The translations under genes were made by a program, and so were the position numbers. A DNA stretch of 64,000 nucleotides from an uncultured Candidatus Saccharibacteria bacterium. GTDB lineage: Bacteria > Patescibacteriota > Minisyncoccia > Phycocordibacterales > Phycocordibacteraceae. The notes below the pieces were generated by a model that was given only the letters and a program-made list of their open reading frames with translations, was not told the origin of the DNA and searched no databases. This document shows positions 9,313-63,032 of the stretch, in pieces. How positions within the stretch are numbered: position 1 is the stretch's first letter; each line of letters opens with the position of its first letter. The DNA is taken from contig CAYGGK010000001.1 of assembly GCA_964349555.1 (NCBI GenBank), positions 120,330 to 184,329 of the forward strand. The letters run 5' to 3'.

Positions 9313-9349
9313 GTCCGCGTCTCTGTGCTTGCCCGCCCGCCCAGTGCAC

Positions 9350-9392: not shown

Positions 9393-9411
9393 GGGGCTGG
9401 CTCCCTACGCT

Positions 9412-9813: not shown

Positions 9814-9817
9814 ACTG

Positions 9818-10405
9818 CTATTTTCTAGTTTGTTTGCGCCACACGAGCATTCCGACAAAAGCGAGGTTTGCGAGAACGAGCGACGCTGGATAGAGCGCGG
9901 TTGTCCAAGTAAAACTCTCAAGCGCAAACAAACTGACGGCGAACTTCAAGCCGGAAAGCCCGTATGTCCAGCCATTCTCTGTTTCGGGGTTAAAAAATGC
10001 TTTGCGGAATGTCGGCACAAAAGCAACGGCATCAATAATCGTGATGATTATAACCGACCAGAGTGGATTGCCGGTGAAATACCAAATCGGGACAGTGAAC
10101 AGGGCGCTTGTAAAAAATATCCAGTCGTTTTTCGTTATAAATACCCGAGATGACGCTCCAAGGCCGACAGCCGCAAAACCGAAACTGCAAAGCGCGGTAA
10201 CGCCCGTAACCCACGCACCCGCGCCGCCGCCTTCGGTTATTTGCGCGACGAACGCTATTGCGGTCAAAAGTCCCCAGACGAACCAGCTGAATGCGTGCGG
10301 TTTGACCTTGCCTTGCAAAATCCCGCGCACATAAAACACATAACCGAACAGACCGAGCGCGACGGCTATGCCGCCTAATATTTCTTGCGTAGTGAATATA
10401 TCCAC
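9818..10405 (-). CDS. Hypothetical polytopic membrane protein
   Basis: Five to six hydrophobic helices, with a GTG start. It sits 4 nt upstream of the SET gene. Confidence 0.45.
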   Translation of the reverse strand: MDIFTTQEILGGIAVALGLFGYVFYVRGILQGKVKPHAFSWFVWGLLTAIAFVAQITEGGGAGAWVTGVTALCSFGFAAVGLGASSRVFITKNDWIFFTSALFTVPIWYFTGNPLWSVIIITIIDAVAFVPTFRKAFFNPETENGWTYGLSGLKFAVSLFALESFTWTTALYPASLVLANLAFVGMLVWRKQTRK

Positions 10406-10429
10406 AACTTCATTTTAGCAGTCTTCTTA

Positions 10430-10531
10430 ACCGATTTGTACTGGCGACACATCGTTGAGGCGCTCCTTGCCAACCCCTCCGACGCGTCCCTCCTCGTTCG
10501 CCAAGAACGCGAGTGGAAACGCAAGGGGTGA
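10430..10531 (+). repeat. Copy B of the murF 3' coding terminus
   Basis: In frame it encodes …DLYWRHIVEALLANPSDASLLVRQEREWKRKG*. It is about 80% identical to murF 9231-9312 and about 95% identical to copy C. Confidence 0.85.
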
Positions 10532-10616
10532 GGACTCCTAACCTACGCGGGAACGGCTCACATGGGAAGAAATGAGCCGTTCAGTGCAAATACTGAAAGG
10601 TACGGAGCGGGCTCCC

Positions 10617-11132
10617 TTATGAGAAACTTATAGCGGTTTTTATCTTTCCAACCAACTCCTCCACGCTCATATTGCTTGTATCAATAAGAACTGAACCGAG
10701 CCGCTCTTTTTTTAGTGCATCGGCCTTTTCCCACATCTCACCTACCCGCTCACGCGTAAGAAGACTTCCGGGCCGGTAGCCGCGTTCGTCCGCTCGCTTT
10801 TGCACGGTGTATTTATCGGCAAACAACAGAAATTCATATACATCGGCACCATGCGCTCGTCCGGCTTCAATCAGTGAATCAACCGTCTCTGATTGTGATA
10901 TTGCTTTGTCGATAATGACGTCCTGTCCCAATTTCAAGTGATGTCCGACGGTTTCGGCCGCTTTCTGGTATGAAATCTGAAGGCTCTCCGCTCGTCGTTC
11001 TTTGTAGTCCGGCACCGATCTTCGAATCTCATCAATATCGAGAAGCACAGAGTTCGGCATGTCCGCATGTAAAAGCTTTGAAATTGTCGATTTTCCTACT
11101 CCGGGCGGGCCATTAAGGATTATGAGTTTCAT
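10617..11132 (-). CDS. P-loop (AAA-type) small-molecule kinase-like protein
   Basis: Walker A ILNGPPGVGKST. At 171 aa it is in the size range of shikimate/gluconate-kinase-like or zeta-like NTPases. Confidence 0.5.
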   Translation of the reverse strand: MKLIILNGPPGVGKSTISKLLHADMPNSVLLDIDEIRRSVPDYKERRAESLQISYQKAAETVGHHLKLGQDVIIDKAISQSETVDSLIEAGRAHGADVYEFLLFADKYTVQKRADERGYRPGSLLTRERVGEMWEKADALKKERLGSVLIDTSNMSVEELVGKIKTAISFS

Positions 11133-11212
11133 AACGCATTATTCCGGCTTAAAGGCCTTTTTTCTTTCTGATACAAGGGATTTACGAGCGCGTAAATCTT
11201 TATTACTCATAT

Positions 11213-11620
11213 TCATTTCGGCGCCGTCTTGAACTGCGGCCAGTGGTCACAGATATCATAGTACGCACCCTTATCCTTCGTGAAAATGTGTTGCGCCGAT
11301 TTTATTCTAGCTTTCTCATCAAGTAGCCCGAGCAAAACGTAAACACGTGCATAGCCTTTTCTATCCCAAGTTATGGACGCCCCGCAGTTGCCGCAGAAGG
11401 TGCGAGTCGTGTTAGAGGATGATTTATACGACAGCAGTTTTTTCGTTCGGTTTATCTTGAACGAATCGCGAAGTGCGCCGACGAACGCGCCGTACATGCC
11501 GTAGTTCTTGCGGCACTGCGAACAGTGGCAAAACCACACGTCATCGAGCGAGCCGGTAAACGAAAATTTTATCGCGCCGCAGCCGCAGGAACCGCGATGC
11601 GTTTTTACCGTTGTCGTCAT
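11213..11620 (-). CDS. GFA/CENP-V family zinc-binding protein
   Basis: Cys clusters GSCGCG, CHCSQCRK and CGNCG. Start taken at MTTTVKTHRG. Confidence 0.6.
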   Translation of the reverse strand: MTTTVKTHRGSCGCGAIKFSFTGSLDDVWFCHCSQCRKNYGMYGAFVGALRDSFKINRTKKLLSYKSSSNTTRTFCGNCGASITWDRKGYARVYVLLGLLDEKARIKSAQHIFTKDKGAYYDICDHWPQFKTAPK

Positions 11621-11645
11621 GTCTTGAGTATAGCGGATTGCCATC

Positions 11646-11746
11646 CCGATTTGTACTGGCGACACATCGTTGAGGCGCTCCTTGCCAACCCATCCGACGC
11701 CTCGCTCCTCGTTCGCCAAGAACGCGAGTGGAAACGCAGATTATAA
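11646..11746 (+). repeat. Copy C of the murF 3' coding terminus
   Basis: Encodes …DLYWRHIVEALLANPSDASLLVRQEREWKRRL*. Confidence 0.85.
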
Positions 11747-22644: not shown

Positions 22645-24342
22645 TCAAAGATTCTCTTTATTTTCTTTTCTTCCAAGTTCTTTAATAATTATTTCCACTA
22701 AGTCCGGGTGGTAGTGTTCGGCCTCATGTCCTCTTGACTTCTGTTTTTCAAACCACCCCGGGTTAGACACCCTATATTTCTCCGCAAAAGATATTATTGT
22801 AGAACCGTCTGCCTTAACAGCACGCCTAAGACTCTTCGCACTTTCCCACCCATCTTTCTTTCCCGGCGTTTCGTTAAAATGTTCTACCATTTTTTCCACT
22901 AAGTCCGGGTGGTAGTGCTCGGCTTTTTGGCTTCCTGACTTCTGTATTTCAAACCACTCCGGGTTAGATACCCTGTATCTCTCCGCAAAAAATTTTATGT
23001 TACGATGAGCTGCCTTAACAACACGCATAAGACCACTTGCGCTTTCCCACCCCTCTTTCTTTCCCGGCGTTTCGTTAAAATGTTCTACTATTTCTTTCAC
23101 TAAATCCGGGTGGTAGTGTTCGGCCTCATGTCCTCTTGACTTCTGTTTTTCAAACCACTCCGGGTTAGATACCCTGTATCTCTCCGCAAAAGATTTTATT
23201 TTACGAAGGTCTGCCTTAACAATAGGTATAAGACTCTTCGCACTTTCCCACCCATCTTTCTTTCCCGGCGTTTCGTTAAAATGTTCTACCATTTTTTCCA
23301 CTAAGTCCGGGTGGTAGTGTTCGGCTTCTACACTTCCCGACTTCTGTCTTTCAAACCACCCCGGGTTAGACACCCTATATTTCTCCGCAAAAGATATTAT
23401 TGTATGACCACTTGCCTTAAAAATATGCCTAAGACTTCTCGAACTTTCCCACCCCTCTTTCTTTTTTGGTACCTCTTTTATGTGTTCAAAATCTGATTTT
23501 GGGACGTTTGGTTTTTTATCGTCATTAACATCGAAATTTTCGGTTAAATACGTAAGCATACGTTCACGCCATTTGCTGTTTTGTCGTAGCACGCTACCAA
23601 TGGCAGGGTCTTCTTCTATATATTTCTTGTATTCGTCTTTGTCTGTCGTATCCAATCTCTCTATACTGATTACTTTTTGTAAAATTTTGTCTCTATCAAA
23701 TATAAAACTCGCGTTACCTTCTTCTTCGCAGATATACACCACTCGGTTTAACTCGGGTATTTCTACCCTGAAGTACGGATAACGCCGCATCATATTATCT
23801 GTAGTTTCTCCCTTTATAATTTTAATATCATCCTCTGTGGTGTCCTCGGCAGGGTCGTTTATGTATATATGAAGGTCATTTTGAAGGATATACATAAGAG
23901 TAGTCAATCTTGGTATGAGGTTCTTCTCTTCTAATCCCTTACTGCTTCCGGGGACGATGGGGTTATTTTCTTTGGAGGGGGGAACAAATACTTCTTTTGA
24001 TACGCCAGTCATTCTCGCTATGTTCCTTTCTAAGTCGTATATAGATTCTTTTCTTTTTGAAATAGCGTCTAGAGTATCGGTTACTGACTGCAATCCTAGA
24101 TACCCCAGAGCGGCATCTTCCAGTTCTTTTCCTATATAAGTCGTTCCGGGATTTTTTTCTTTATATTCAGAAGTTGCTTTAGACACAATGAGAATCAACG
24201 TGTCCACTGCCTCATCGTAGAAAGTATGTACGTTATCTGGGTTTATACTTGTGTGTAGGAGGTTGTCATACTCAACCTTAAGCGAGTTTTTTAAAGATTC
24301 AGGACGGGCTCTGTATTCTTTACCTGATAAACGACCCTCCAT
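22645..24342 (-). CDS. Hypothetical protein with four C-terminal 67-aa tandem repeats
   Basis: 201-bp DNA repeats across about 22690-23493 encode K(K/E)GWES…SFAEKYRVSNP(G/E)WFEKQKS…AEHYHPDLVEKMVEHFNETPGK four times. The ~300-aa N-terminal domain is unique. The gene is AT-rich compared with its neighbours. Confidence 0.6.
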   Translation of the reverse strand: MEGRLSGKEYRARPESLKNSLKVEYDNLLHTSINPDNVHTFYDEAVDTLILIVSKATSEYKEKNPGTTYIGKELEDAALGYLGLQSVTDTLDAISKRKESIYDLERNIARMTGVSKEVFVPPSKENNPIVPGSSKGLEEKNLIPRLTTLMYILQNDLHIYINDPAEDTTEDDIKIIKGETTDNMMRRYPYFRVEIPELNRVVYICEEEGNASFIFDRDKILQKVISIERLDTTDKDEYKKYIEEDPAIGSVLRQNSKWRERMLTYLTENFDVNDDKKPNVPKSDFEHIKEVPKKKEGWESSRSLRHIFKASGHTIISFAEKYRVSNPGWFERQKSGSVEAEHYHPDLVEKMVEHFNETPGKKDGWESAKSLIPIVKADLRKIKSFAERYRVSNPEWFEKQKSRGHEAEHYHPDLVKEIVEHFNETPGKKEGWESASGLMRVVKAAHRNIKFFAERYRVSNPEWFEIQKSGSQKAEHYHPDLVEKMVEHFNETPGKKDGWESAKSLRRAVKADGSTIISFAEKYRVSNPGWFEKQKSRGHEAEHYHPDLVEIIIKELGRKENKENL

Positions 24343-26200: not shown

Positions 26201-27166
26201 TCAGTTATTAAGCTCGCTTCCCCCGTGGAATTTTTCGTGTATATCGCGGAGTCGTTTATTCGTCACGTGCGTGTAGATCTGGGTTGTCGCGACGTTTTTA
26301 TGTCCGAGCAATTCTTGCACACTGCGCAGGTCTGCGCCGTGGGAGAGAAGGTCGGTCGCGTAGCTGTGCCGGAGCGTGTGGGGAGTGACCTTTTTTGAGA
26401 GGCCCGCGAGTACCGCGCATCGGGATATCATTTTCTGAATAGAGCGCGGGGACAAGCGTTTTGCGTCCGCGTCATCCTTGTGTCGGAAGTTTATAAAAAG
26501 GGGAGTATGCACGTCGCGCCTCGCCACGAGATACGTTCGGAGCCATTCGGCCGCCCGAGGTGAGATAAAAATGGTTCTGACATGATTCCCTTTACCAACG
26601 ATAGATAATTCGTAGGTCCGTGTATGACTTTTGTCGTTAAGAAACGAAACTTGGTCCGTATCAAGCGCGACAAGCTCGCTGATGCGCATGCCAGACGAGA
26701 AAAAAAGTTCCATAATGGCCCGATCGCGCAAGCCGTTTAAAGTTGCTACGTCAGGAACTTTCATCATCTTCTCCACATCGTGTACGTCAAGGAAGGAAAG
26801 AGTCTCTTCTGTCTTTTGTTTTGCCAATTTAATTTTTGAAGAAGGAAGAGACTCTATGTCGCGATCGGCGAGATAGTTGAGAAACGCGCGCAGAGCTATA
26901 AGGTAATAGTTCTGGGACTTTTTGCCGAGGTATCCGCCGGAAGGTGTCGTATATTTGCGTGCGAGGTAGAGACGATAATCCCATATATGCTTTGGCGTGA
27001 GTTCGTGAGGCAAGAGTCCCTCGTCTCCATTTTTCTTCAGCCAGCCCATAAAAAGTTGTAAGTACTGCTTGTAATTTTTTTGCGTATTACTCGACAGTCC
27101 TTTTTCAACCTCGCAGTAATCGAGGAAGGGAAGGAGGTGGTTAGAGAGCGATTGCTTGTCGCGCAT
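26201..27166 (-). CDS. Tyrosine site-specific recombinase (XerC/XerD-like)
   Basis: R…HTLRHSYATDLL…LGH…TQIYTHV catalytic box. Confidence 0.8.
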   Translation of the reverse strand: MRDKQSLSNHLLPFLDYCEVEKGLSSNTQKNYKQYLQLFMGWLKKNGDEGLLPHELTPKHIWDYRLYLARKYTTPSGGYLGKKSQNYYLIALRAFLNYLADRDIESLPSSKIKLAKQKTEETLSFLDVHDVEKMMKVPDVATLNGLRDRAIMELFFSSGMRISELVALDTDQVSFLNDKSHTRTYELSIVGKGNHVRTIFISPRAAEWLRTYLVARRDVHTPLFINFRHKDDADAKRLSPRSIQKMISRCAVLAGLSKKVTPHTLRHSYATDLLSHGADLRSVQELLGHKNVATTQIYTHVTNKRLRDIHEKFHGGSELNN

Positions 27167-41280: not shown

Positions 41281-41341
41281 ACTAGAATTATCTCAAATAG
41301 GAGTTGAGAGTCAAACGGACTTATACACAGAAATGTTTACT

Positions 41342-41397
41342 TTAGTACAAGAATGAGGACGCCTTGTTTGCCCTTGCGCACGAGCGCGTAGCCGCCG
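41342..41397 (-). repeat. Diverged duplicate of the tyrS 3' coding terminus
   Basis: Read on the - strand it encodes VGGYALVRKGKQGVLILVLK*. This is identical to the TyrRS C-terminus at the protein level and different at the nucleotide level. Confidence 0.8.
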
Positions 41398-41497: not shown

Positions 41498-41541
41498 AAC
41501 TATCCCCAATTTTACGCTATAGCGTTATTTATGTGCTGGTG
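41498..41541. repeat. Palindromic element (core TACGCTATAGCGT)
   Basis: tccccaattttacgctatagcgttatttatgtgctggtg. The first 22 nt are the exact reverse complement of 62964-62985. Confidence 0.7.
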
Positions 41542-41563
41542 CCGACTGGTAGGATTCATAAAT

Positions 41564-42145
41564 ATGAAGAAGGTCGAGGCTGAGGCGAAGGTGAAGCGAC
41601 GGAGACGTGATTTGCACAATATCATTTTAGCAACGATTGCTGTCGCCGGGATTCTTACTGTCGCAGCCGTAGCGCCAAACGCAATGCGCCTCCTTAAAAC
41701 GACCGGCATAGACGCCCGTCTTCGGTATAAAACAAAACGGGTGCTTGGGAGATTAAAGCAGAAAGGTGAAATCGAGTTCGTTGAGAAGGATGGCAAGACC
41801 CTTGTACGGCTTACCGAGCGTGGCGAACAAGCGCTCGCGCTACATGCCGAGCGGCTAAGGCTTGCGGGCGAAAGGCCCAAGAAATGGGATCAACGCTACC
41901 GGCTGGTGATGTTTGATGTCCCAGAAAAGCGTAAGCGGACTCGAGATCTCTTGCGTCGAGAAATGAGAGAGGTCGGTTTCCTTCGTATACAGGACAGCGC
42001 GTGGCTCTACCCTTACGACTGTGAAGAGTTTGTTGCGCTTTTGAAAGCGGACTTGCATATCGGGAAGGATGTACTCTACGCCGTCATTGAATCAATTGAA
42101 AACGATGCGTGGATCCGAAAACATTTTAATCTTCGTACAGATTAA
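41564..42145 (+). CDS. Winged-helix + PaaX_C/Cas2-fold domain protein
   Basis: N-terminal TM helix, a wHTH (…LKQKGEIEFVEKDGKTLVRLTERGEQAL…) and a C-terminal YRLVMFDVPEK…GFLRIQDSAWLY β-α-β core. Confidence 0.5.
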   Translation: MKKVEAEAKVKRRRRDLHNIILATIAVAGILTVAAVAPNAMRLLKTTGIDARLRYKTKRVLGRLKQKGEIEFVEKDGKTLVRLTERGEQALALHAERLRLAGERPKKWDQRYRLVMFDVPEKRKRTRDLLRREMREVGFLRIQDSAWLYPYDCEEFVALLKADLHIGKDVLYAVIESIENDAWIRKHFNLRTD

Positions 42146-42165
42146 GACTAACCGCTTCCCGACAT

Positions 42166-42203
42166 CAGCACAATAATTACGCTATAGCGTAATTATTGTG
42201 CTG
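42166..42203. repeat. 38-bp perfect palindrome
   Basis: cagcacaataattacgctatagcgtaattattgtgctg. It shares a TACGCTATAGCGTA core with 41498-41541 and 62958-62985. Confidence 0.8.
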
Positions 42204-42264
42204 GTAGGGGAGGTAAATTTTGGGCGGTTGATTGGGCGGTCGGTATGTGGGTACTTATTATTTT

Positions 42265-43518
42265 TTATTTCAAAACGAGGATGAGGACGCCTTGTTTGCC
42301 CTTGCGCACGAGCGCATAGCCGCCGGAAAGATCGCCGGGGTAAATTTTTTGGTCGGGATTCTCAATCGTCTGGTCTGAAAGAGTAATGCCCTTTCCTTCT
42401 ATCAGCCGGCGAGCGGCGCTTTTAGAAGTTGCAAGGCCACCAACGACAAGCGCGTCAGCGAGCGGGGAGCCGTCAGCGACGTCTTTCTTTGTGAGAACTA
42501 CGGAAGGCGCTTCGGCGAGTGCCACCGCGAGCGCTTCGCGGGAGAGCCCGCTAAACGGCGTGTCGCCGAAGAGGGCGTCAGTCGCGGCCGCGACCTGCGC
42601 GGTCGCGGCGGGCCCGTGAACTATCTCGGTCACAAGTCGAGCGAGCGTCTCCTGGGCTTGCCTCTCGCCTGGGTTCCGTTGATGGAGCTCCATAAGGGCG
42701 CCAATTTCAATAAGCGACAGGAAGGTATACACCTTCAGATAATTTTCAATACCCTCGTCCGGAAGGTTTATCCAAAATTGGTAGAAACGGAAAGGGGACG
42801 TCTTCTTCGCGTCAAGCCAAACGGCGTTCCCTTCGCTCTTGCCGAACTTTTTCCCGCTCGCATCGGTGACGAGTGGAAATGTGAACGCAAATACTTCTTT
42901 CCCGGCACGTTTTCGGATTAAATCGACACCAGAGAGGATGTTTGTCCACTGGTCGGAACCGCCGATCTGAAGGTCCACGCCGTACTTTTCGTTAAGCGTC
43001 AGGTAATCATAACCTTGCAAAAGCGCGTAGGAGAACTCGGTAAAGGAGATGCTCTCGTCTGGTGTGTCGAGACGTTTCTTTATAGTCTCGCGTTTGATGA
43101 GGTCGTTGACTGTGAAATGTTTACCGATATCGCGTAGGAACGGCAATAGCTTAACCTTGGAGAGCCACTCCGCATTGTCTACCATCTTGAAAGGAATCTT
43201 GCCGAGGATCTTTTTCAGCTGTATTTGAAGCGCGCGGGTATTGGCGACGACCGTTTTTTCATCCAGCATCACCCGCTCCCCCACCTCTTTAGGGTCGCCG
43301 ATCATGCCGGTACCACCGCCCACAAGAAAGACAAGTTTATTACCAGTGTCGCCGAGTCGCCTCATGAGGAGCATGAAAACGAGGTGTCCTATGTGGGCTG
43401 AATCGGCCGTTGGATCAATACCAATATATATAGTCCTTGGCGCGGCTAGTATCTTTTCTAAATCAGTAGACGAGTGTACTGCCAGCCCGCGCGCCTTCAG
43501 CTCTTCAGCTAGAGTCAT
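42265..43518 (-). CDS. tyrS: Tyrosyl-tRNA synthetase
   Basis: GIDPTADSAHIGH (HIGH), KFGKS and a C-terminal S4 domain. Confidence 0.85.
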   Translation of the reverse strand: MTLAEELKARGLAVHSSTDLEKILAAPRTIYIGIDPTADSAHIGHLVFMLLMRRLGDTGNKLVFLVGGGTGMIGDPKEVGERVMLDEKTVVANTRALQIQLKKILGKIPFKMVDNAEWLSKVKLLPFLRDIGKHFTVNDLIKRETIKKRLDTPDESISFTEFSYALLQGYDYLTLNEKYGVDLQIGGSDQWTNILSGVDLIRKRAGKEVFAFTFPLVTDASGKKFGKSEGNAVWLDAKKTSPFRFYQFWINLPDEGIENYLKVYTFLSLIEIGALMELHQRNPGERQAQETLARLVTEIVHGPAATAQVAAATDALFGDTPFSGLSREALAVALAEAPSVVLTKKDVADGSPLADALVVGGLATSKSAARRLIEGKGITLSDQTIENPDQKIYPGDLSGGYALVRKGKQGVLILVLK

Positions 43519-43530: not shown

Positions 43531-45330
43531 TCACTCCTCGTCATCGTCAGCCCCACCGAGGAATCCGCCAGCCTGTATCTCCCACAGCTTTTTATACAGA
43601 TTACTTTCTTGCGCAATCAGTTCCTGATGAGAGCCTGTGAGTACGTTCCTCCCTTCTTCCATCACGATGATTCTGTCCATTTTCATAATGGTGGAGAGAC
43701 GGTGCGCGATGGCAATAACCGTTTTCCCCCCCATAAGCTTCAAAAACGCGTCTTGAATAAGAGCTTCCGACTCTGAGTCAAGACTTGAAGTCGCTTCGTC
43801 GAGGATAAGAATAGGTGCGTCCTTGAGTATCGCGCGAGCGATTGCTACCCTCTGACGTTCGCCTCCCGAGAGTTTTACTCCGCGCTCTCCTACGTAGGTA
43901 TCGTACCCTTGCGGGAGGGCCGAGATGAATTCGTGGCAGTGGGCACGCTTAGCCGCCTCAATCACCTCTGCTTCGCTCGCGTCACGCCTCCCATAGCGGA
44001 TGTTGTCCCGAAGCGTTCGGTGGAAGAGGAGCGGCTCCTGCGGGACGAAGGATATGAGGCTCCTCAAGCTTTCTTGGGTTACTTCACGTATGTTGTGACC
44101 GTCGATAGTGATGGTTCCCTCGGTTGGGTCATAGAGACGTAAGAGGAGTTTTGTAACGGTAGACTTGCCAGCGCCCGAGGGACCGACGAGGGCAACTTTT
44201 TCTCCTCCGGTAACATGAAGCGAAAAATTATTAAGTACGGAACGGTCACCGGTGAAAGAGAAAGAGACTTCGTTAAAGTGTATTTCGCCAGAAGTAAGAG
44301 TGAGCGCTCTTGCTCCGGCGACGTCCTGAATGCTCCGTGGCGTTTCTATAATATCCACCATTTCTGACGCATCGGCAAAAGCATCGTACAGTCGGCGGAA
44401 AGTGTTGCCGATATTCCATACCTGGTCGATGAGCCCCACTATATACACTTGGATGAGTACAAAATCTCCGATGGTAAGAAGCCCGCGTTGCCAGAGGAGC
44501 ACTGCTCCGGCGAGCAGTCCCACCTCGACGATAACCGCAAGCGCATACTGAATACCTTGAATCCAGGAGTCTGCTAACCACGAACGCAGGGTTGCCTCCT
44601 TCCACGCCCTTACAATCGAACTGAAGTAACCTGTCTCGTACTTCTCCGCGGCGAAGAGTGTGACCGTTGAGTGATTGCTGATAGCGTCCGAGAGAGCCCC
44701 TGTCATTCGACTGTCTTCTTTAACACGTGCGACGCGGAGCGGGTGGCGCCAACGAGTCAGAAATATTTGAATTATCACAAAGAGAATAAACCACGCGAGA
44801 AGAGAGAGCCCTAGCCACGCGTTTCGTATGTATAAGACCGTGATACTTCCCGCCGCAAAGAGGAGAGTGGGAAGGAAGTTCATCATCACGCTATCAAACA
44901 CTTGCTCGTAGGCGCGAGAATATCGGGTAACACGACGCGTGAGCGTTCCGGCGAAGTTAGAAATGAAAAAATCGTGGCCTTGGCGAATCAGATAGCTAAA
45001 CGCCGAGTCAGCCAAATCCATCATGACTCGCGCCTCAATGTGCATGATTGAGATTCTTTGGATGTGCCGCGCGATCCAGCCACCTGCGCCGACAACTGCA
45101 TACATCGCCAGGATTCCGAGAGCCGTTACGGTAATTGCTTCTGGTACTACCCCGCTCGTGAGCGTGTTGATAAATTCTCGTAGATACAGAGGGCCAATAA
45201 GGGAAGCCGCCTGCATACCGAAGGTCCCCAGCACGGCAAAAAGAAGAATTCCGGAATATTGCAGAGACGCACTCGTATACGCCCGTAACACAGGGAGAAT
45301 GCGCACGTCCTTTTTTCGCTCGTCTGACAT
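43531..45330 (-). CDS. ABC exporter, fused permease/ATPase
   Basis: Six TM helices plus an NBD with Walker A GPSGAGKST, the signature LSGGERQR and Walker B ILDEATS. Confidence 0.85.
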   Translation of the reverse strand: MSDERKKDVRILPVLRAYTSASLQYSGILLFAVLGTFGMQAASLIGPLYLREFINTLTSGVVPEAITVTALGILAMYAVVGAGGWIARHIQRISIMHIEARVMMDLADSAFSYLIRQGHDFFISNFAGTLTRRVTRYSRAYEQVFDSVMMNFLPTLLFAAGSITVLYIRNAWLGLSLLAWFILFVIIQIFLTRWRHPLRVARVKEDSRMTGALSDAISNHSTVTLFAAEKYETGYFSSIVRAWKEATLRSWLADSWIQGIQYALAVIVEVGLLAGAVLLWQRGLLTIGDFVLIQVYIVGLIDQVWNIGNTFRRLYDAFADASEMVDIIETPRSIQDVAGARALTLTSGEIHFNEVSFSFTGDRSVLNNFSLHVTGGEKVALVGPSGAGKSTVTKLLLRLYDPTEGTITIDGHNIREVTQESLRSLISFVPQEPLLFHRTLRDNIRYGRRDASEAEVIEAAKRAHCHEFISALPQGYDTYVGERGVKLSGGERQRVAIARAILKDAPILILDEATSSLDSESEALIQDAFLKLMGGKTVIAIAHRLSTIMKMDRIIVMEEGRNVLTGSHQELIAQESNLYKKLWEIQAGGFLGGADDDEE

Positions 45331-45877: not shown

Positions 45878-46972
45878 CTAAAGCCCCTCGGTTTTAAGGT
45901 TTTCAACAACTGTACGAGCCTTGCCGGATAGTTTATGAGGGAGGGCGACTTCAAGGCGAATAATGAGGTCGCCGCGAGCCCCATCAAGCGGGATGCCCTT
46001 GCCGGCTACGCGCAGTAATTCTTCTGCGCGTTTCATCGGCGGGATTTTTACTTCCAGCATCTTCCCTTCCAGCGTTTCAACGGAAACCGTAGTGCCAAGC
46101 AGTGCGTCAGTGAGCTTCATTGGCAAACTCATAATGAGATTTGAGCCGTCGCGGCGGAATGTCGCATGCGGCTTCACGTGCACCTTCACATACAGGTCTC
46201 CCGCGACTCCAGTCTTAATCGCCTCGCCCTGCCCCGTCATGCGTATCATCTCGCCATTATCAATGCCGGCGGGAATTTGTATCTTTATCTCCTCCTGTTT
46301 GCGCTTCACTCCTTGCCCCTTACACTCTAGACATTTTTCTTTGGGAACCTTCCCGCTCCCGTTACAGACGGTGCAGGTACGCACAGAGGTAAATTGTCCG
46401 AGGATTGAGTTACGCGCCTCGTGGACACGCCCGCTCCCGTTACAGGTCGTGCATTTTTCTAGTTCGGTTCCAGCTTTTGCGCCGGAGCCGTGACATATCG
46501 TACAGGCAGAAACCTTCGCGAGGAGGACCGTGCGTGTCGTGCCGAACACCGCATCTTTGAAAGGAATTTCTAGATCAATGGAGATATCGCGCCCTCTCGG
46601 CGTCTGGGCTCTGCCACCTCTTCCGGAGAATATGTCGCCAAAGATATCGCTAAAGTCGAACTCCGCGCCGTCTTGTCCGAATCCGCCTCCACTGAAATCA
46701 AATCCGCCAAACGGGGAACCTGTTTGCCCAGAGCCTGTCGAGGGGCCGCGACCCCCAGCAAAAGATTGTCCGTACGTATCATACTCGCGGCGTTTCTTCT
46801 CGTCGCTTAAAACCGAATACGCCTCGGTGATTTCTTTAAACTTGGCTTCATCGGTGCCTCCCTTGTCGGGGTGATATTTATGCGCGAGTTTGCGGAACGC
46901 CTTCTTGATGTCGTCCGCACTCGCCTTCTTGTCCACTCCGAGCACGCTGTAATAATCTTTTGTTGTTGCCAT
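45878..46972 (-). CDS. dnaJ: Chaperone DnaJ
   Basis: J-domain (HPD), a G/F region and four CxxCxGxG zinc repeats. Confidence 0.9.
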
Positions 46973-47022
46973 GTCTTTCTATTATACTCTTACTTGTTTT
47001 TGTATGCAAAAAAACCGCCCCC

Positions 47023-47856
47023 TCATCTTGCGATAAGAAGGGCGGTTTCGAGTGAGGTCACTTCAACGATCTTGGATGCTAGTGGGGTCTTAAGGTCCCT
47101 CGCGACGGCCTCATAAGCATCCCAGAACTCGTACACGTTGAATAAGTCGCCGTGCTTCTCCGCCCGATCTTTTACTAGGGTGATGAGGCGAACTTTTCTT
47201 TTAGCAACCAAAACAGCACTGGCGATAAAGATCTTATAGGAAGTAACGCGGTAGTCGCGGTCGGTTCGGAACGCGAGCTCAGAGAACTGGTGCCTCCACT
47301 TCTCACTTTCTTTAAGCAACATGCAATACTGACCGCGTTGGCCCTCGAGCAAGGAACGGATTTTTGCGTCCCTTGGCGGGTTGAGGGAGAGATCCCTGAA
47401 GATGGACAACTCCTCCTTGCGGCGCCTCTCCGCGTCCTGCCTTTCGCGTTTTCCCCGCTCCTGTTTCTTGGTAAGAATTGCTCTTTTCGCCTCACCTGAA
47501 GAAGTGAACCTCAGGTCCTTTTCAAAAAACTTGAGGAGCTTATCGAAGAGCGATTGCAGATTGCTCGTTGCAACAGTTGAATCAGTGGAACTGCCGACCA
47601 AGTACTGTTTGTTGCTTACTTCATTTTCAACGTAGTATTTGACCACCGCATCATAGAGGGACCTCGCCCTCTCAGTACTTAGGTGATACGTGTTGTCTAT
47701 ACCAGTAGCGGTGAACTTCCCCCTCCAGGCAATGTTCCCGGGAAAAAGTTTCTTGAGCTGAGCGATATCACTGACCGATAGACCCGCGGATACCTTAACG
47801 CGAGTCCCTGCCCGAATTCCTTCCGGCCGAACTTTAAAGCAGAACTGTACTTCCAT
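47023..47856 (-). CDS. Hypothetical protein
   Basis: 277 aa, Lys/Arg-rich in the middle, no recognisable domain. Its promoter, leader and first 11 codons are duplicated at 48476-48590. Confidence 0.45.
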   Translation of the reverse strand: MEVQFCFKVRPEGIRAGTRVKVSAGLSVSDIAQLKKLFPGNIAWRGKFTATGIDNTYHLSTERARSLYDAVVKYYVENEVSNKQYLVGSSTDSTVATSNLQSLFDKLLKFFEKDLRFTSSGEAKRAILTKKQERGKRERQDAERRRKEELSIFRDLSLNPPRDAKIRSLLEGQRGQYCMLLKESEKWRHQFSELAFRTDRDYRVTSYKIFIASAVLVAKRKVRLITLVKDRAEKHGDLFNVYEFWDAYEAVARDLKTPLASKIVEVTSLETALLIAR

Positions 47857-47937
47857 GTTCGTTACCCCCTATGTGTTTGTTGAGAACTAGACTTTCTTCC
47901 AAAGTTAATATTACTTAAAAATCAAGAGACGTCAAAT
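47824..47937 (-). promoter_or_regulatory. Promoter/leader/5'-coding repeat, copy 1
   Basis: On the - strand: TTGACG, a 16-nt spacer, TAATAT, then about 45 nt, the RBS agggggt and ATG GAA GTA CAG TTC TGC TTT AAA GTT CGG CCG GA. Confidence 0.6.
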
Positions 47938-48033
47938 TAAAAACTTGACTTGTCTGTAGTAAAGACAGGCGCACATACCCGAGGGTTGCGCGCCTGTGTT
48001 GGTTGCTGGATTTCAGACTAGGCCAGACCTTGA

Positions 48034-48267
48034 CTAGATCTCGACCAACTTGTAAATGAAATGTTTCTTGCCCGTTTGCTTTTTAGCGTATTTGCGAAAT
48101 CCTTCCGCCTCCGCCATAGTGCCGTGATGAACCTCAGTATGATACGAGTAGACGCAGACACCGTCCTCGAGGTCTGGCCATGGTCGACCGATACAATAGC
48201 TAAAACGTAGCGACGCGGAAGCCTTCGTGGGACGTTTCTGTTTACTTGGCTTACTCGACATTTGCAC
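48034..48267 (-). CDS. Small hypothetical protein (77 aa)
   Basis: Strong RBS gaaggag 7 nt upstream. A terminator-like hairpin sits downstream at about 47965-47995. Confidence 0.4.
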   Translation of the reverse strand: MQMSSKPSKQKRPTKASASLRFSYCIGRPWPDLEDGVCVYSYHTEVHHGTMAEAEGFRKYAKKQTGKKHFIYKLVEI

Positions 48268-48475
48268 TTCTCCTTCTCATGGGTTACTTCCCAACATCGG
48301 TTGGAAAGGCACGGTTTAATTCTCTAAAAGCATAGCACAGGAGTTGAAAAATTGTGCAAGCAAAATTAGTAGGTCTTTTGGCAAATTTTCATCAACATAG
48401 ACTAGAACTTCTCTTTGAATTCCGCATCCTTCGGCCCTTCTGCAGGGCCGTCAGGACCTCCATTTTCACCTCCGG

Positions 48476-48590
48476 TCGAACTTTAAAGCAGAACTGTACC
48501 GTCATGTTCGTTGCTCCCTCTGTGTTTGTGTTTGTTGGGAACTAGTCTCTTCCGAAGTTGATATTACTTAAAAGTTAAGAAACGTCAAAC
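48476..48590 (-). promoter_or_regulatory. Promoter/leader/5'-coding repeat, copy 2
   Basis: Same TTGACG-16-TAATAT promoter and leader. It encodes MTVQFCFKVRPE, then diverges and stops after 37 codons. Confidence 0.6.
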
Positions 48591-48614
48591 CCCGCGAGGC
48601 GAAGCCTCGCGGGG
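48586..48614 (-). terminator. dnaK terminator hairpin
   Basis: ccccgcgaggc-gaa-gcctcgcgggg. Confidence 0.5.
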
Positions 48615-48640
48615 TTTGTGTTGAAATCAAACTTCCCTTC

Positions 48641-50533
48641 TTATGGTTTCTCTTTAAATTCCGCGTCGGTGGTGGGAGCCTCTCCACCAGAGTCGGGACC
48701 TCCGGCTTCGCCTGCGGGGGGTGGTGTCTCAGTCTGTTTTGACATAGCCTCGCCGATTTTCATGAGCGCGGAGGAGAGCGCGTCGGCCGCCGCGGAAATC
48801 GTTGAGGGGTCTTCGCTGTTGCGCGCTGTCTTGAGCGCGTCAATCTTATCCTGCACTTCTTTCACCACTTCTGCCCCAGCTTTTTCTCCATGCTCTTTTA
48901 TTGCTTTCTCGCCAGCGTACACGGCTTGGTCGGCGATGTTGCGCGCCTCCACGAGCTCTTTACGCTTTGCGTCATCCGCCGCGTGCTCCTCGGCGTCTGC
49001 CGCCATTTTATCAATATCAGCCTTTGAGAGGCCGGTGGAGCCTTCGATGCGAATACTCTGCTCTTTCCCCGTAGTCTTCTCTTTTGCTTTCACCGTCAAA
49101 ATACCCGAGGCATCAACGTCAAAGGTTACTTCCACCTGCGGCATGCCACGCGGAGCCGGCGGGATGCCGTCAAGCATAAATTTGCCGAGCGATTTGTTGT
49201 CGGCGCTCATCGCGCGCTCACCCTGGGTGATATGGATTTCCACCGACGGCTGATTATCAGCGGCGGTAGAAAACGTCTGTGAGCGACTGGTTGGTATCGC
49301 CGTGTTGCGCTCCACGAGCTTGGTCGCCACTCCCCCCATCGTCTCTATGGAGAGCGAGAGCGGGATCACGTCCACAAGAAGGATGTCTTTCACGTCGCCC
49401 TGGAGAATGCCCGCCTGGATAGCGGCGCCGATAGCGACAACCTCGTCGGGGTTCACCATCATGTTCGGCTTTTTGTTGAAAAACTTCTCCACGGCCGCCT
49501 GGAGGGCGGGCATACGAGTCTGTCCGCCGACAAGAATTACTTCGTTGATATCGCCAACCTTAAAGGGCGACGCCTCCATCGCGCGCTTAGTGATGCTCAT
49601 CGCGCGTTCAATGAATTCGCTTGAGAGGTCCTCAAGCTTCGCTCTCGTCATCTTTATAAGGAGGTGGCGCGGGCCGGAGGCGTCAGAGGTAAGAAACGGA
49701 ATATTTATCTCCGTCTCCATCGCGCTTGAAAGCTCTATCTTTGCCTTCTCAGCCGCTTCGTCAAGGCGCTGGCGCGCGAGCGCGTCGCTTCGCACATCTA
49801 TCCCGCTTTCTTTTTTGAATTCGTCGGCGAGCCAGTTGATAATCTTCTGGTCGATGTCCTTGCCGCCGAGATGCGCGTCGCCGTCTGTGCTTTTCACCTC
49901 CAAGACGTCTCCGCCCACTTCCAAAATGGAAATGTCGAACGTACCGCCGCCGAAGTCAAAGACCGCAATCTTCTCGTCCTTCTTCTTATTGAATCCATAG
50001 GCGAGCGCTGCAGCCGTCGGCTCGTTGATGATACGGAGCACTTCAAGGCCGGCGATCTGGCCGGCCGCTTTGGTTGCGCTACGCTGGTCATCGTTAAAAT
50101 ATGCGGGGACGGTGATAACCGCCTGGGTAATCTTTTCTCCAAGTTTCGCCTCGGCGTCTGCCTTCAGCTTGCCAAGTATCATCGCCGAAAGTTCTTCGGG
50201 ACGGTACCACTTATCGCTCATCTTGACCTCGATGCCGCCCTTCTCCGCCTTGCGCATCTCAAAGGGCACCGAGTCCTTGTCCTTCTGCACCTCGGGCTCG
50301 TCAAAAGAGTGGCCGATGAAGCGCTTTATCTGAAAGATGGTGTTCAGCGGGTTCGTCACCGACTGGCGTTTCGCGAGCGTACCGACGATGCGCTCACCAG
50401 TCTTCCCTATCGCGACAATGGAGGGGGTTGTGCGGGCGCCTTCGGCATTCTCCAGCACACGCGGCTCGCCACCCTCGACGACCGCCATCGCTGAGTTAGT
50501 AGTGCCCAAATCTATACCGAGTATTTTTGCCAT
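48641..50533 (-). CDS. dnaK: Chaperone DnaK (Hsp70)
   Basis: [14 protein letters not shown]…. Confidence 0.95.
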
Positions 50534-51146: not shown

Positions 51147-51503
51147 TTATCTTGACAGCACGATAATACTCGCCTCAATTTCAGTATGGCAATTTTTACA
51201 AACCAAAACACATTTTTTAGCTTCTCGTAAAATGCTGTCCCATGAATATGAAAGTCCTTTTACACTCAAAGCAAAAGTCTTTGTTTTCGGATTCGTATGA
51301 TGAAAGTCTAATGCTCCTGCATATTTTTTATATCCGCAAATGACACATTTCCCTCCAAAAATTTCTACAAGTTTCTCTTTTTTCTCGCGCCTATGGTTTA
51401 TGACCCATTCAGAAGCGCATTTACCACAGCGGAAAGCACCATCTGGTCTCGGAAAATGTTTTGTCTGACCATGTTTCTTACATGTTTTTATCATTAAAGA
51501 CAT
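51147..51503 (-). CDS. HNH endonuclease family protein
   Basis: CxxC…CxxC zinc knuckles, then DFHH…N…CH. Confidence 0.55.
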   Translation of the reverse strand: MSLMIKTCKKHGQTKHFPRPDGAFRCGKCASEWVINHRREKKEKLVEIFGGKCVICGYKKYAGALDFHHTNPKTKTFALSVKGLSYSWDSILREAKKCVLVCKNCHTEIEASIIVLSR

Positions 51504-57200: not shown

Positions 57201-58661
57201 ATGATCGCGCGTCCCGATATTCTGTTCTTCTCCGCCGCGTGCGGCTTCGTCGCGGGGACCGTCGCTGGCGGACTGGGAGTCCCGCCGCTTGTCGCTCTTT
57301 TCCTATCCGTTTTTTCAATTTTCGTTGTTTTATTTTTCCGGAAAATACTCGTGGTAGTGGCTCTCGTGGTTGCGGGACTCTTTCTTTTAGGAAATGTGTA
57401 CTACGCCATCGACGACTACGCCTACCGCTCCGCCGAGCGCGCGGCGGAACAAGTTGTTTATTTTGAAGGCATCATCGTAGACGAGCCGCGCCGCTCTCTC
57501 AAAGATCAAACGGTAAAAGTGGAGTTGATACGCGCCGATGTTGAAAACGCGCTTGGAAGCCGTCTCTACCTCCGGACAGAACTTTATCCGGAACTCTCGT
57601 ACGGCGGAATAGTGCGCGTCTCGGGAGTAGTCGTCGCTCCGCCGAAGGATTCATACGGTAACTATATAAAGAAAGAGCGCATGCACGGCACGATGTTCTA
57701 TCCAGAAATAGAGGTCATTGGCGACGAAGGCAACGCTGTTCTCGGCGCGCTCTTTAGCGTGCGACAGTCCATCAAGGACCATATAGGACGCCTTTTTGTC
57801 CAACAGCATGCCGCCTTTCTCTCTGGGATCCTTTTGGGCGATAAAGATGAATTCTCTCCGGAATTTTTGAATAAGCTCTCAACAAGCGGCACGATGCATT
57901 TGATGGCGCTTTCGGGCCTGAATATGACGATTATTGTATTTATCGCTCTCGCGGTTTTTTCGGTCGTGTTTCGCGGGAGGAAACGCCCGCAATTTATCGC
58001 GACATTCGGTGTCGTAGCGCTCTTCGTGGCGATGACTAGCTTCCAGGTATCCGCCATTCGCGCCGCACTCATGGCCTTCGTTGTTGGTCTCGCTGACGTC
58101 ACTCACCGGCTCTACAGGCCTCATAACGCCATCGCGCTTGCGGCGCTTATCCTCACCCTATGGAATCCGAAGGCTCCGGTATTCGATCTCGGGTTCCAAC
58201 TCTCTTTCCTTGCGACACTCTCGATCATTTACTTCGCACCGGCTCTGAAGCGTCTACCGTTTCTGCAAGCTGACGGCGCGTTCGGATGGCGCGACGCGCT
58301 TGCCATAACGCTCGCCGCCCAGCTCGGCGTCGCGCCGATAACGATCATCAGCTTCGGCAACTTTTCTTTCACCGCGCTTTTTGCAAACATCGGAATTCTC
58401 GCGGTTATCCCCCTCCTGACAGTTATGGGCTTTCTCGTCGTACTCTTCTCAATGGTCTTCCCTCCGCTAGCCTTCCTCGTCAGCCAGCCGATCGCATTTC
58501 TTATAGACTACGTCGTTGCGGTTGTTGAAACATTCGCAACAGTGTACATACCGTTTAATCCCAACATAGGGGTAACACTCGCGGTGATATATTATTGCGT
58601 GATGATATGGATATGCTGGCGCTGGTCTCCCGCATTTAAAACAGATGAAAAATCCTCTTGA
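57201..58661 (+). CDS. comEC: ComEC/Rec2 N-terminal membrane (competence) domain
   Basis: DUF4131-like region and the polytopic competence domain. Confidence 0.7.
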   Translation: MIARPDILFFSAACGFVAGTVAGGLGVPPLVALFLSVFSIFVVLFFRKILVVVALVVAGLFLLGNVYYAIDDYAYRSAERAAEQVVYFEGIIVDEPRRSLKDQTVKVELIRADVENALGSRLYLRTELYPELSYGGIVRVSGVVVAPPKDSYGNYIKKERMHGTMFYPEIEVIGDEGNAVLGALFSVRQSIKDHIGRLFVQQHAAFLSGILLGDKDEFSPEFLNKLSTSGTMHLMALSGLNMTIIVFIALAVFSVVFRGRKRPQFIATFGVVALFVAMTSFQVSAIRAALMAFVVGLADVTHRLYRPHNAIALAALILTLWNPKAPVFDLGFQLSFLATLSIIYFAPALKRLPFLQADGAFGWRDALAITLAAQLGVAPITIISFGNFSFTALFANIGILAVIPLLTVMGFLVVLFSMVFPPLAFLVSQPIAFLIDYVVAVVETFATVYIPFNPNIGVTLAVIYYCVMIWICWRWSPAFKTDEKSS

Positions 58662-60114
58662 TAAAAAAGTCCTATTCCAGCTCGCCGTCGTCGGCGCGGT
58701 CGGTTTAACAGTATGGATCTGGTTTGGCATACTTTTTACGCGAACGCCGTCCGACACGCTATACGTTCTTGACGTGGGGCAAGGAGATAGTCAATTAGTC
58801 GTCCTCGCCTCAGAAGACGGCAAGTCGGTAATAAAAATTCTTATAGACGGTGGCAGAGATAAAACAGTGCTGTATGCCCTCGACGAGGCGCTCGGAAACT
58901 TGAATGATAAATATATAGATCTCGTTATTCTCACGCAGACTGACCTTGACCACATGGGCGGGATTATTGAAGTTACACAACGGTACGACGTCGGTATGTT
59001 CGTATCGAACGGACGCGAGAGAGACTCTGACGCATACGCGGCATTGCGAAAAACGCTCACCGACCGCGGCATCAATACAATCGCCCTCCTTGAAGGAGAC
59101 TCCATACGTTACGGCGATAACATCCTGACCGTTCTCTCACCGCATCAGGAACGCTTGAAAAGCAAGAGCACAAATGAGGCGAGTCTCGTTGTCATGCTCC
59201 AGTCGGGAGGTACAAAAACACTCTTTACCGGAGACATCGGCTTCCCTACCGAAAATGAGCTTCTTGAGAAAAAAGTTGACCTTACGGCCGACATCCTGAA
59301 GGTCGGGCATCATGGCTCAAAATATTCTTCCGGCGAGAACTTCCTCGCCGCTGTGCGACCAACGATTTCAGTTATTGGCGTCGGTATGAAAAATGGGTAC
59401 GGACATCCTGCGGCGCGCGTGTTAGAGACTCTTGAGCTTGCCGGTTCGCGTGTGTATCGTACCGACCTTAATGGGACCATCAAAATTCCACTAGGCGCGA
59501 GCGAACTCGCGCGCACAGAAACGCCTCGCGAGAGCTCTCTGGCGGCGCTTATAAGCATCGCGACAGGTGACTACGCGCAAACGGGCTTCACAACGATCTC
59601 CTTGCAACAGGCGCGGGAGGAGGCAGGCGAATCCGATCTCGTTCCATACAAAAAATGTTCGTTCCATACCGAGGGCAGCCCTCGGTATTCGCCGGTCGTC
59701 ATCAATGAAGTTGCGTGGATGGGTTCGCTCTCCGGCGCCACGCATGAATGGATAGAATTACACAATGTCTCATCGGCACAGGTGGATATGTCCGGCTGGC
59801 AGCTTCTAAATGAGAATGAGCGGCTCCGCGTCACCTTCCCGCAGAAGTCAGTATTTAATCAATCTTACCTTCTGCTCGCGCGCAGTGCCGCCAGCGAGGC
59901 GCTCGGGTTTGACGCCACGCTCGTCTTTACCGGCTCTCTGCGCAACAGTAATGAAGGCCTGCGGTTATATGACAATGAGTGTAATCTAATAGACGAAGTG
60001 CCCGTCTCTTTAAAATGGGTCGCTGGAAATAACACATCAAAACAGACGATGGAGCGCATGCCCGATCTGTCGTGGCGCACCTCCATGAGCCCTGGAGGCA
60101 CCCCGAACAACTAG
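58645..60114 (+). CDS. comEC: ComEC C-terminal metallo-β-lactamase domain + lamin-tail domain
   Basis: YVLDVGQGDS…, HHGSKYSS, and an LTD (VVINEVAWMG…EWIELHN). It overlaps the upstream ORF by 17 nt in a different frame. Confidence 0.7.
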   Translation: MKNPLDKKVLFQLAVVGAVGLTVWIWFGILFTRTPSDTLYVLDVGQGDSQLVVLASEDGKSVIKILIDGGRDKTVLYALDEALGNLNDKYIDLVILTQTDLDHMGGIIEVTQRYDVGMFVSNGRERDSDAYAALRKTLTDRGINTIALLEGDSIRYGDNILTVLSPHQERLKSKSTNEASLVVMLQSGGTKTLFTGDIGFPTENELLEKKVDLTADILKVGHHGSKYSSGENFLAAVRPTISVIGVGMKNGYGHPAARVLETLELAGSRVYRTDLNGTIKIPLGASELARTETPRESSLAALISIATGDYAQTGFTTISLQQAREEAGESDLVPYKKCSFHTEGSPRYSPVVINEVAWMGSLSGATHEWIELHNVSSAQVDMSGWQLLNENERLRVTFPQKSVFNQSYLLLARSAASEALGFDATLVFTGSLRNSNEGLRLYDNECNLIDEVPVSLKWVAGNNTSKQTMERMPDLSWRTSMSPGGTPNN

Positions 60115-62235: not shown

Positions 62236-62952
62236 ATGTCTGACGCATTTATGCCGAACAAAGGAAAACGCCTGGACGCTGTTGCGCTCGGCGTGAGCTA
62301 TTTGCGCCTCCCCATTAAAACGCGCCTTATTAACGTCGGTGACGACTTGACGCAACTTCTTGAAGAATATGTGCGACCGCACCTTAAAAACGGAGACATT
62401 CTTTTTATCAGCGAGAAGATTGTCTGCATCACGCAGGGACGCATCGTACGCCGCGATGATGTACGGACTTCGTGGCTCGCGCGGTTTCTCTCGACAAAGG
62501 TGCGCAACTACGCGGGAACGCCTCAATTCCGCGGGCTCGGCCACGGCACCGCGCCGGCGATGCAACTGCTTATTGAAGAAGCGGGATACCCACGCACCCT
62601 CTTCGCCGCCTTTGTTTCGGCGCTGACCCGCCCGCTCGGCATCAAGGGCGCGTTCTATTATCTGGTCGGTAAGCAAGCGAAGTCTATTGACTGCCCGATG
62701 TCGTGGACTATTGAACCATTTCAAGAATATGCAAAGCGAGCGCCCGCAGACCCTGACGGTGTCGCGAGAAAAATTAAAGAAGCATTCGGTGTAGAAACGG
62801 TTATCGTTGACGCGAATTACCGCGGAGCATTCTCGCTCGGCAAGTCAACGCGCAGCATATCGGAAAAACTCATACGCGAACTCCTCGCAGACAACCCCGC
62901 CGGCCAAGACAGCGAAATGACGCCTTTCTTCATCGTTCGCCGCCGACATTAG
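62236..62952 (+). CDS. CofE/F420-0:γ-glutamyl ligase-like protein
   Basis: …GDDLTQLLEE…GDILFISEKIVCITQGR… and …VETVIVDANYRG… resemble the F420 ligase fold. Confidence 0.45.
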   Translation: MSDAFMPNKGKRLDAVALGVSYLRLPIKTRLINVGDDLTQLLEEYVRPHLKNGDILFISEKIVCITQGRIVRRDDVRTSWLARFLSTKVRNYAGTPQFRGLGHGTAPAMQLLIEEAGYPRTLFAAFVSALTRPLGIKGAFYYLVGKQAKSIDCPMSWTIEPFQEYAKRAPADPDGVARKIKEAFGVETVIVDANYRGAFSLGKSTRSISEKLIRELLADNPAGQDSEMTPFFIVRRRH

Positions 62953-62957
62953 CACAT

Positions 62958-62985
62958 AAATGACGCTATAGCGTAAAATTGGGGA
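62958..62985. repeat. Third copy of the palindromic element
   Basis: tgacgctatagcgtaaaattgggga. Confidence 0.7.
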
Positions 62986-63032
62986 TAGTGCCTTGAAATG
63001 TTTTGGAGACTGAGAAATCGCATTCGCCGCAG

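Follow-up and report, generated by a model that had tools for sequence, protein, structure and literature searches.

The 64,000-nt stretch of DNA analyzed here (positions 120,330 to 184,329 of contig CAYGGK010000001.1, from an uncultivated bacterium of the Candidate Phyla Radiation (CPR); this whole stretch is the window, and all coordinates are positions within it) carries, between the genes dnaK and dnaJ, a duplicated predicted promoter, leader and gene start, together with a relic of a second dnaK 3' end. We conclude that this structure is probably a recombination scar in a hypervariable dnaK-dnaJ spacer, formed by homology on one side and by an illegitimate joint on the other, most likely after DNA uptake. 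All features of the block lie on the minus strand and follow one another as dnaK with one type of tail (tail a), a terminator, a truncated copy of the repeat (copy 2), the dnaK 3'-end relic with another type of tail (tail b), a small ORFan gene, a second hairpin, a copy of the repeat (copy 1) that opens the gene for a 277-amino-acid protein (p277), and dnaJ.

The two repeat copies measure 116 nt (copy 1, 47822-47937) and 120 nt (copy 2, 48471-48590) and are identical at 99 of 114 aligned positions (87%), with one 2-nt and one 6-nt indel, both in the leader. The duplication described in the first-pass annotation is real and aligns over both the promoter and the start codon, with limits a few bases wider than had been noted. 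The window holds exactly two occurrences of a 28-mer from the promoter core and likewise two of a 29-mer from the coding core, while none of 100 shuffled sequences held two matches. No further copy was found in the window or in 170 related loci, and no similarity between the copies extends upstream of the -35 element. Both copies carry TTGACG and TAATAT hexamers of sigma-70 type separated by 16 nt (-35 at 47935-47930 and -10 at 47913-47908 in copy 1; 48588-48583 and 48566-48561 in copy 2), followed by a leader, the purine-rich ribosome-binding site (RBS) that had been noted earlier, and an ATG (47856 and 48505, respectively) with 12 shared codons that read M(E/T)VQFCFKVRPE, again as noted. The hexamers match the sigma-70 consensus at 9 of 12 positions in both copies, so the earlier wording of a near-consensus, strong promoter was overstated; CPR bacteria, moreover, have no settled promoter rules.

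Copy 1 begins the complete p277 gene (47023-47856), which is recognized as an open reading frame (ORF) with homologs and a confident AlphaFold2 model, while the ATG of copy 2 opens an ORF of only 37 codons (48392-48505, from the ORF list). When five p277 family members from other genomes (six contigs) were compared, the upstream DNA was unrelated, with no conservation of the promoter and leader. Since the homologs of p277 each have unrelated, promoter-like upstream regions, the repeat is the native promoter, 5' untranslated region and start of the p277 gene, copy 1 being the working one, and copy 2 appears to be a truncated, dead duplicate.

The sequence beyond copy 2 accounts for the remainder of the 37-codon ORF. 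The repeat ends at ...GTTCG(A/G)CCGGA, after which copy 2 runs GGTGAAAATGGAGGTCCTGACGGCCCTGCAGAAGGGCCGAAGGATGCGGAATTCAAAGAGAAGTTCTAG; read in a frame other than that of the copy-2 ATG, this continuation gives STGGENGGPDGPAEGPKDAEFKEKF and a stop codon. Judged by its sequence, STGGENGGPDGPAEGPKDAEFKEKF is a dnaK C-terminal tail that had been overlooked in the first-pass annotation, which was correct in having the repeat end at codon 12 of a 37-codon ORF but took the sequence that follows as merely divergent. The relic (48402-48478), located by a six-frame search, blastn and a peptide match, reads ...GGPDGPAEGPKDAEFKEKF before its stop codon, or (ST)GGENGGPDGPAEGPKDAEFKEKF in its long form, and the motif DAEF[KT]E is present in the six frames of the window only in dnaK and in this relic. 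It is 83% identical over 71 nt (blastn) to the live dnaK tail of a related locus, L096, and its peptide matches the L096 sequence ...GPDGPAxGPKDAEFKEK, which is an unusual one. The joint lies inside a 10-nt microhomology, CGACCGGAGG (48469-48478), that is included in the blastn match: copy 1 reads CGGCCGGAAGG, and the L096 dnaK tail contains CCACCGACCGGAGGCAGC. In p277 this microhomology falls at codons 10-12, and in dnaK it falls ~26 codons before the stop codon. The 37-codon ORF, composed of 12 p277 codons and an out-of-frame dnaK tail, is most likely a by-product without function.

A hand count over the last 19 codons gave 4 synonymous and 2 non-synonymous codon changes between the relic and L096, along with a different stop codon. 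Since these differences are mostly synonymous, the relic would have diverged mostly under selection and spent little time as junk DNA; and since the relic is little decayed, the 13% difference between copy 1 and copy 2 more likely arose as divergence that preceded the event than as decay that followed it. The event accordingly looks recent, as far as these substitution counts suggest.

The dnaK gene in use (630 amino acids, 48641-50533, with an HSP70 Pfam match on identical contigs) ends in a different type of tail. Comparison with relatives defined this tail a as the last ~28 codons (48724-48641), which over 84 nt are 89% identical to locus L093 and 87% identical to locus L008 and share their pattern of indels. 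Over the last ~150 alignment columns, the live tail is 83% identical to L093 and L008 vs. 43-61% to all other relatives, while the body of dnaK is ~80% identical to all relatives; the DnaK of L093 is the most similar overall (92%). Since tail a and tail b resemble the tails of different relatives, the structure appears to join two versions of the dnaK-dnaJ spacer that had diverged from each other. Among close relatives (loci L005-L016 and L093-L156), the last ~25 DnaK codons before the invariant DAEFKEK ending are hypervariable, and the type of tail does not track the similarity of the dnaK body. This pattern fits frequent recombination breakpoints at the end of the gene.

DnaJ-anchored scans recovered 160 related loci, all from Patescibacteria of the Paceibacteria / Nomurabacteria type, the best of which show 81-87% DnaJ identity. 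In L007 and L008, dnaK and dnaJ are 0-6 nt apart, and in L095, L098 and L102 they are effectively adjacent, which bears out the earlier statement that the block interrupts grpE-dnaK-dnaJ. Other relatives that are just as close carry unrelated cargo in the same interval: a 72-amino-acid ORF and a ParE-toxin ORF in L096; three small ORFs, one of them DUF5674, in L093; a 309-313-amino-acid protein in L094 and L129; a histidine phosphatase in L104; two other ORFs in L100; and a small membrane-like ORF in L156. A stretch of ~45 nt before dnaJ that contains its predicted promoter (46977-47021, with TTTGCA-18 nt-TATAAT at 47010-46981 and agreement at 10 of 12 consensus positions) is kept in the insert-bearing loci L093, L094, L096, L100 and L129, at 82-91% identity over 32-48 nt (blastn). 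No dnaK-tail relic above the level of shuffled sequences was found in the spacers of 38 relatives. The dnaK-dnaJ interval is, on this comparative evidence, an insertion hot spot with conserved flanks, and for this reason a split grpE-dnaK-dnaJ operon is ordinary in this clade. It resembles the flexible islets found between core genes in being either empty or filled with unrelated small cargo from one relative to the next, between conserved flanks, but differs from them in that the interval splits a heat-shock chaperone operon and keeps the physical junction of one exchange event.

We propose that two versions of this spacer served as the starting material. Version A would have consisted of dnaK with tail a, the terminator, and the promoter, leader and p277, and version B would have consisted of dnaK with tail b, the small ORFan gene, and the promoter, leader and p277. 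A cell with one version would have taken up a piece of the other, most plausibly by way of ComEC. One end of this piece would then have recombined by homology in a conserved flanking gene, and the other would have been joined illegitimately at CGACCGGAGG, as occurs in homology-facilitated illegitimate recombination (HFIR). By analogy with two other loci of the window described below, tail b and the small gene may have been resident, with tail a, the terminator and copy 2 incoming. As side-effects of such an event, dnaK would now end at a strong terminator, a predicted hairpin with a perfect 15-bp stem (48586-48618; -31.1 kcal/mol, z = -7.1) whose 3' arm overlaps the -35 element of copy 2; the small gene would now have a further copy of the p277 promoter upstream of it; and dnaJ (364 amino acids, 45878-46972) would use its own promoter.

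The gene content of the window includes ComEC, RecR and RmuC. ComEC appears to be split into two overlapping ORFs on the plus strand, 57201-58661 (Competence and DUF4131 domains) and 58645-60114 (metallo-beta-lactamase and lamin-tail domains). No recombinase, transposase or other mobility gene was found in the block itself among its ORFs or in scans against Pfam, PHROG, PADLOC and NCBIfam. Natural transformation has been shown experimentally within the Patescibacteria in Saccharibacteria only (PMC10633639), and com genes are conserved across the Patescibacteria (PMC10633639, PMC12455944). HFIR is described, in a passage of PMC6382021 that cites de Vries & Wackernagel 2002, as joining DNA at microhomologies of 3-10 bp after natural transformation.

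The structure is like HFIR in Acinetobacter baylyi, Streptococcus pneumoniae and Pseudomonas stutzeri in having a conserved gene as a possible anchor, a joint at a short microhomology (10 nt here), and foreign or diverged DNA added beside the anchor, in a genome that encodes the ComEC uptake channel. However, HFIR was defined in laboratory transformation, whereas here we infer it from a scar that arose in nature, in a CPR bacterium known only from uncultivated material. In addition, the donor appears to have been a diverged allele of the same locus, which would have led to a partial duplication instead of an insertion of unrelated DNA. RecA dependence and a crossover in the anchor belong to the known system, whereas in this case it is the sequence scar that we observe.

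Several results weigh against this interpretation. Neither parental version was found on its own, as exact look-ups of p277, DnaK and DnaJ returned only the same arrangement, and the structure is the same in every contig of the population. When dnaK and dnaJ-p173 were compared with 16 relatives in sliding windows, identity was flat at ~70-85%, with no breakpoint. No close relatives of p277 or of the small gene were present among 5.8 billion proteins, and a 23-mer of the repeat had no match in the JGI metagenomes. In addition, the argument from tail types concerns ~80 nt of fast-evolving, low-complexity sequence, and the transformation route is deduced from gene content and from work on another class of Patescibacteria.

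Two further genes in the window, murF and tyrS, also have duplicated 3' ends. The 3' end of murF (8008-9312, plus strand) is present three times within the region 9189-11746, once as the functional tail and twice as relics at ~10431-10533 and 11646-11746. Between these tails lie two cassettes that are unrelated to each other and run on the opposite strand, the first encoding a SET-domain protein (9412-9927) and the second encoding an AAA_33/zeta-toxin-like kinase (10617-11132) and a GFA-family protein (11213-11719). Both murF relics share a left flank that is not murF sequence, CCGATTTGTACTGG, and the stop codon of the distal relic overlaps that of a convergent DUF4236/TPR gene. The 3' end of tyrS (minus strand) is duplicated, with the copy in use at 42264-42325 and an 89% identical relic at 41336-41397, and a gene for a 204-amino-acid PaaX_M/Cas2-like protein lies between them on the plus strand (41531-42145). 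In L094, L104, L156 and L025, tyrS is directly followed by the helix-turn-helix gene that here follows the tyrS relic. A long, perfect palindrome, CAGCACAATAATTACGCTATAGCGTAATTATTGTGCTG (42159-42208), flanks the PaaX-like cassette and has partial copies at the opposite end of that cassette (41514-41543) and at 62943-62992, the latter 20.8 kb away and following an F420-ligase-like gene. It might act as a shared terminator in both directions, or else be a small repeated element.

Since the distal murF relic overlaps the stop codon of its convergent neighbor and the tyrS relic adjoins the conserved downstream gene, the relic at each of these loci would be the resident end, and the incoming DNA would have brought a new tail. 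By analogy with the murF and tyrS scars, tail b would be the resident one at dnaK. The murF and tyrS relics look like the same kind of scar, in the order new tail, insert, old tail. The first-pass annotation had linked the repeat to 3'-end replacements at murF and tyrS; the link turns out to be closer than was thought, as the block has its own dnaK 3'-end relic abutting copy 2.

We considered several other explanations for this structure. That two co-existing strains were stitched together during assembly is extremely improbable: some contigs of the population do end close to the locus, no more than a few hundred bases away, but four assemblies, three made with MEGAHIT from three ENA samples and one from a Logan run with a different assembler, agree at every base over the 1788 nt that reach from the dnaK tail to the start of dnaJ, and a fifth sample yielded a contig with the p277-dnaJ part. 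Furthermore, the 13% difference between the repeat copies speaks against a collapse, and a 10-nt overlap cannot create a join at k=141. A less easily dismissed alternative, which we consider possible although on balance unlikely, is that the same HFIR event ran in the opposite direction. Version A would then have been resident, and tail b, the small gene and the p277 start would have been incoming, with homology on the p277/dnaJ side and the resident p277 5' end displaced, which amounts to the 5'-end replacement envisaged earlier. This direction predicts the same junction and products, and the live tail matches L093, the locus whose DnaK is most similar overall; however, the relics at murF and tyrS appear to be resident ends, and by analogy tail b would be the resident one. 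Microhomology-mediated duplications are common, and an intragenomic tandem duplication from the dnaK tail to p277 codon 12, by slippage or unequal exchange at CGxCCGGA(A)GG, is also conceivable, though we judge it a little less likely still. The joining of p277 codon 12 to an upstream dnaK position has the head-to-tail topology of such a duplication, with a short microhomology at the novel joint, and no parental allele was found. Nevertheless, the first copy would later have had to lose the small gene and to have its tail overwritten or diverged, so that at least two further events are needed. The units are not colinear, as the interior is ~55 nt with a terminator in unit 1 and ~465 nt with a gene in unit 2; no similarity links these interiors or the regions upstream of the -35 elements; and the units differ in content, length and type of tail, with the tails matching different relatives and differing by indels. 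The mostly synonymous differences between the relic and L096 also argue against long neutral decay, and yet the repeats differ by 13%.

A mobile element that entered by site-specific recombination, with the repeats as att sites and with the element supplying either another promoter and start or a replacement dnaK end, would explain why direct repeats flank a 533-bp segment with one small gene, why the end of the target gene was restored with the old end left behind, and why several such relics are found in one window that also encodes a tyrosine recombinase ~20 kb away. Elements such as SXT/R391 in the prfC 5' end, and tRNA/tmRNA- and dusA-specific islands, integrate into a gene end and restore it, and the present structure is like theirs in the relic of the old end, the new functional end and the flanking direct repeats. 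Even so, such an origin is very improbable. No recombinase is present in or beside the block, and the distant one (26201-27166) is Xer-like in its domain layout and linked to no cassette. The repeat is the ordinary 5' region of its neighbor p277, with that gene's promoter and start, and is not shared by the other family members examined, nor was it found in the spacers of relatives (170 loci) or in the JGI metagenomes. No other dnaK-tail relic is present in the 38 spacers of relatives, so that recurrence is lacking along with an integrase and a conserved att core, and the joint is a short microhomology inside coding sequence instead of a conserved core site. For the same reasons, namely the absence of a mobility gene from the block and the identity of the repeat as p277's native 5' region, the earlier suggestion that an incoming element supplied a new promoter and start is not upheld. 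Finally, copy 2 might have been kept for a function, as a promoter for the small gene, as a 37-amino-acid leader peptide or as a structured leader. Its -35, -10, RBS and ATG are intact, and the sequence from copy 2 to the small gene has no predicted terminator. However, the leaders of the two copies fold no better than shuffled sequences (z = +0.37 and -0.73), and the ORF is a chimera that reads the dnaK tail out of frame and stops ~125 nt before the start of the small gene, which makes translational coupling unlikely. We regard retention for function as improbable overall, and the leader-peptide arrangement raised in the first-pass annotation did not hold up, given the chimeric ORF, in which 12 codons run on into a dnaK tail in a shifted frame, the shuffle-like folding of the leaders and the lack of a credible Rfam match. 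Capture of a promoter by the small gene is possible as a consequence of the predicted arrangement, not as its design. A structured RNA or riboswitch in the repeat was rejected, as a permissive Rfam search returned nothing but tRNA-Asn and, on the wrong strand, a sub-threshold match to His_leader (E = 0.21).

Turning to the two genes of the block, an exhaustive HMMER search found 40 remote homologs of p277 besides itself at E <= 0.001, mostly 230-277 amino acids long and 23-39% identical to p277 in a 23-sequence alignment. They occur as single genes scattered in unrelated contexts of CPR-like contigs, with no relatives in viral contigs. AlphaFold2 with the 23-sequence alignment gave a model with a predicted local distance difference test score of 90 and a predicted template modeling score of 0.78, in which residues 4-10, inside the repeat, form the first beta-strand and which had no neighbor among solved PDB structures. 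Neither p277 nor the small gene matched Pfam, PHROG, PADLOC or NCBIfam, and the search of 5.8 billion proteins turned up no homolog of the small gene. p277 belongs, by these homology searches, to a rare, uncharacterized family with about 40 detectable members, which is worth noting for combining such rarity with a confidently predicted fold that lacks a solved-structure neighbor. A terminator-like hairpin with a T-run lies at its 3' end (47018-47041). The small gene (48034-48267) stands as a self-contained unit, as described in the first-pass annotation, in that it has its own AAGGAG RBS and is followed by a hairpin terminator (47965-47997; -25.1 kcal/mol, z = -5.2), but its length needs revision: gene callers read 75 amino acids from the ATG at 48261 on identical contigs, and this reading is on record, whereas the exact 77-amino-acid reading from a GTG is not. 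The GC contents of p277 (50.6%) and of the small gene (49.1%) are close to that of the genome (51.8%), which fits exchange among relatives without being diagnostic of it.

Other features of the window lie outside the block. Between tRNA-Asn and grpE (51138-50569, minus strand) is an ORF for a 118-amino-acid zinc-ribbon/HNH-like protein (51147-51503, minus strand) with weak, sub-threshold Pfam matches, a GC content of 36% (28% at third codon positions) vs. 52% for the window, and a distribution limited to this lineage among 170 related loci; it may be a recently acquired, free-standing homing-type nuclease. A 565-amino-acid ORF without a Pfam match (22645-24342, minus strand) contains four tandem 201-nt units that are 64-90% identical (22688-23590). 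A 599-amino-acid ABC transporter gene (43531-45330, minus strand) lies between tyrS and a gene for a 173-amino-acid membrane protein; it is absent in most close relatives, where the flanking genes are then neighbors, and represents a variable insertion without a relic.

The HFIR-type scar in the dnaK-dnaJ hot spot is a new instance of a known event and not a new system, and as such it is of modest interest. Its value lies in being a clean natural footprint, with the junction kept to the base, of a process that is mostly documented in laboratory transformations; a literature search for illegitimate recombination in Patescibacteria or the Candidate Phyla Radiation found nothing. For annotation, the 37-codon ORF should not be called a gene, and the grpE-dnaK-dnaJ operon appears to be split into separate transcription units in this lineage. 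The presence of three tail-relic loci in 64 kb suggests how streamlined CPR genomes may place single-gene cargo between essential genes, and turn it over, without dedicated mobile-element machinery. As a more speculative extension, which we think unlikely to hold as a general rule, the dnaK, tyrS and murF relics might be traces of a route by which competent CPR bacteria regularly gain genes, in which a highly conserved essential gene serves as the homologous anchor for diverged DNA, the joint forms at a microhomology a few dozen bases before the stop codon, and the resulting direct repeats act as landing pads where further cassettes are swapped or stacked. The murF locus, with its three tails around two unrelated cassettes and the left flank common to both relics, would be the example of such stacking. 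If so, these bacteria would possess an integron-like cassette platform that operates without an integrase.

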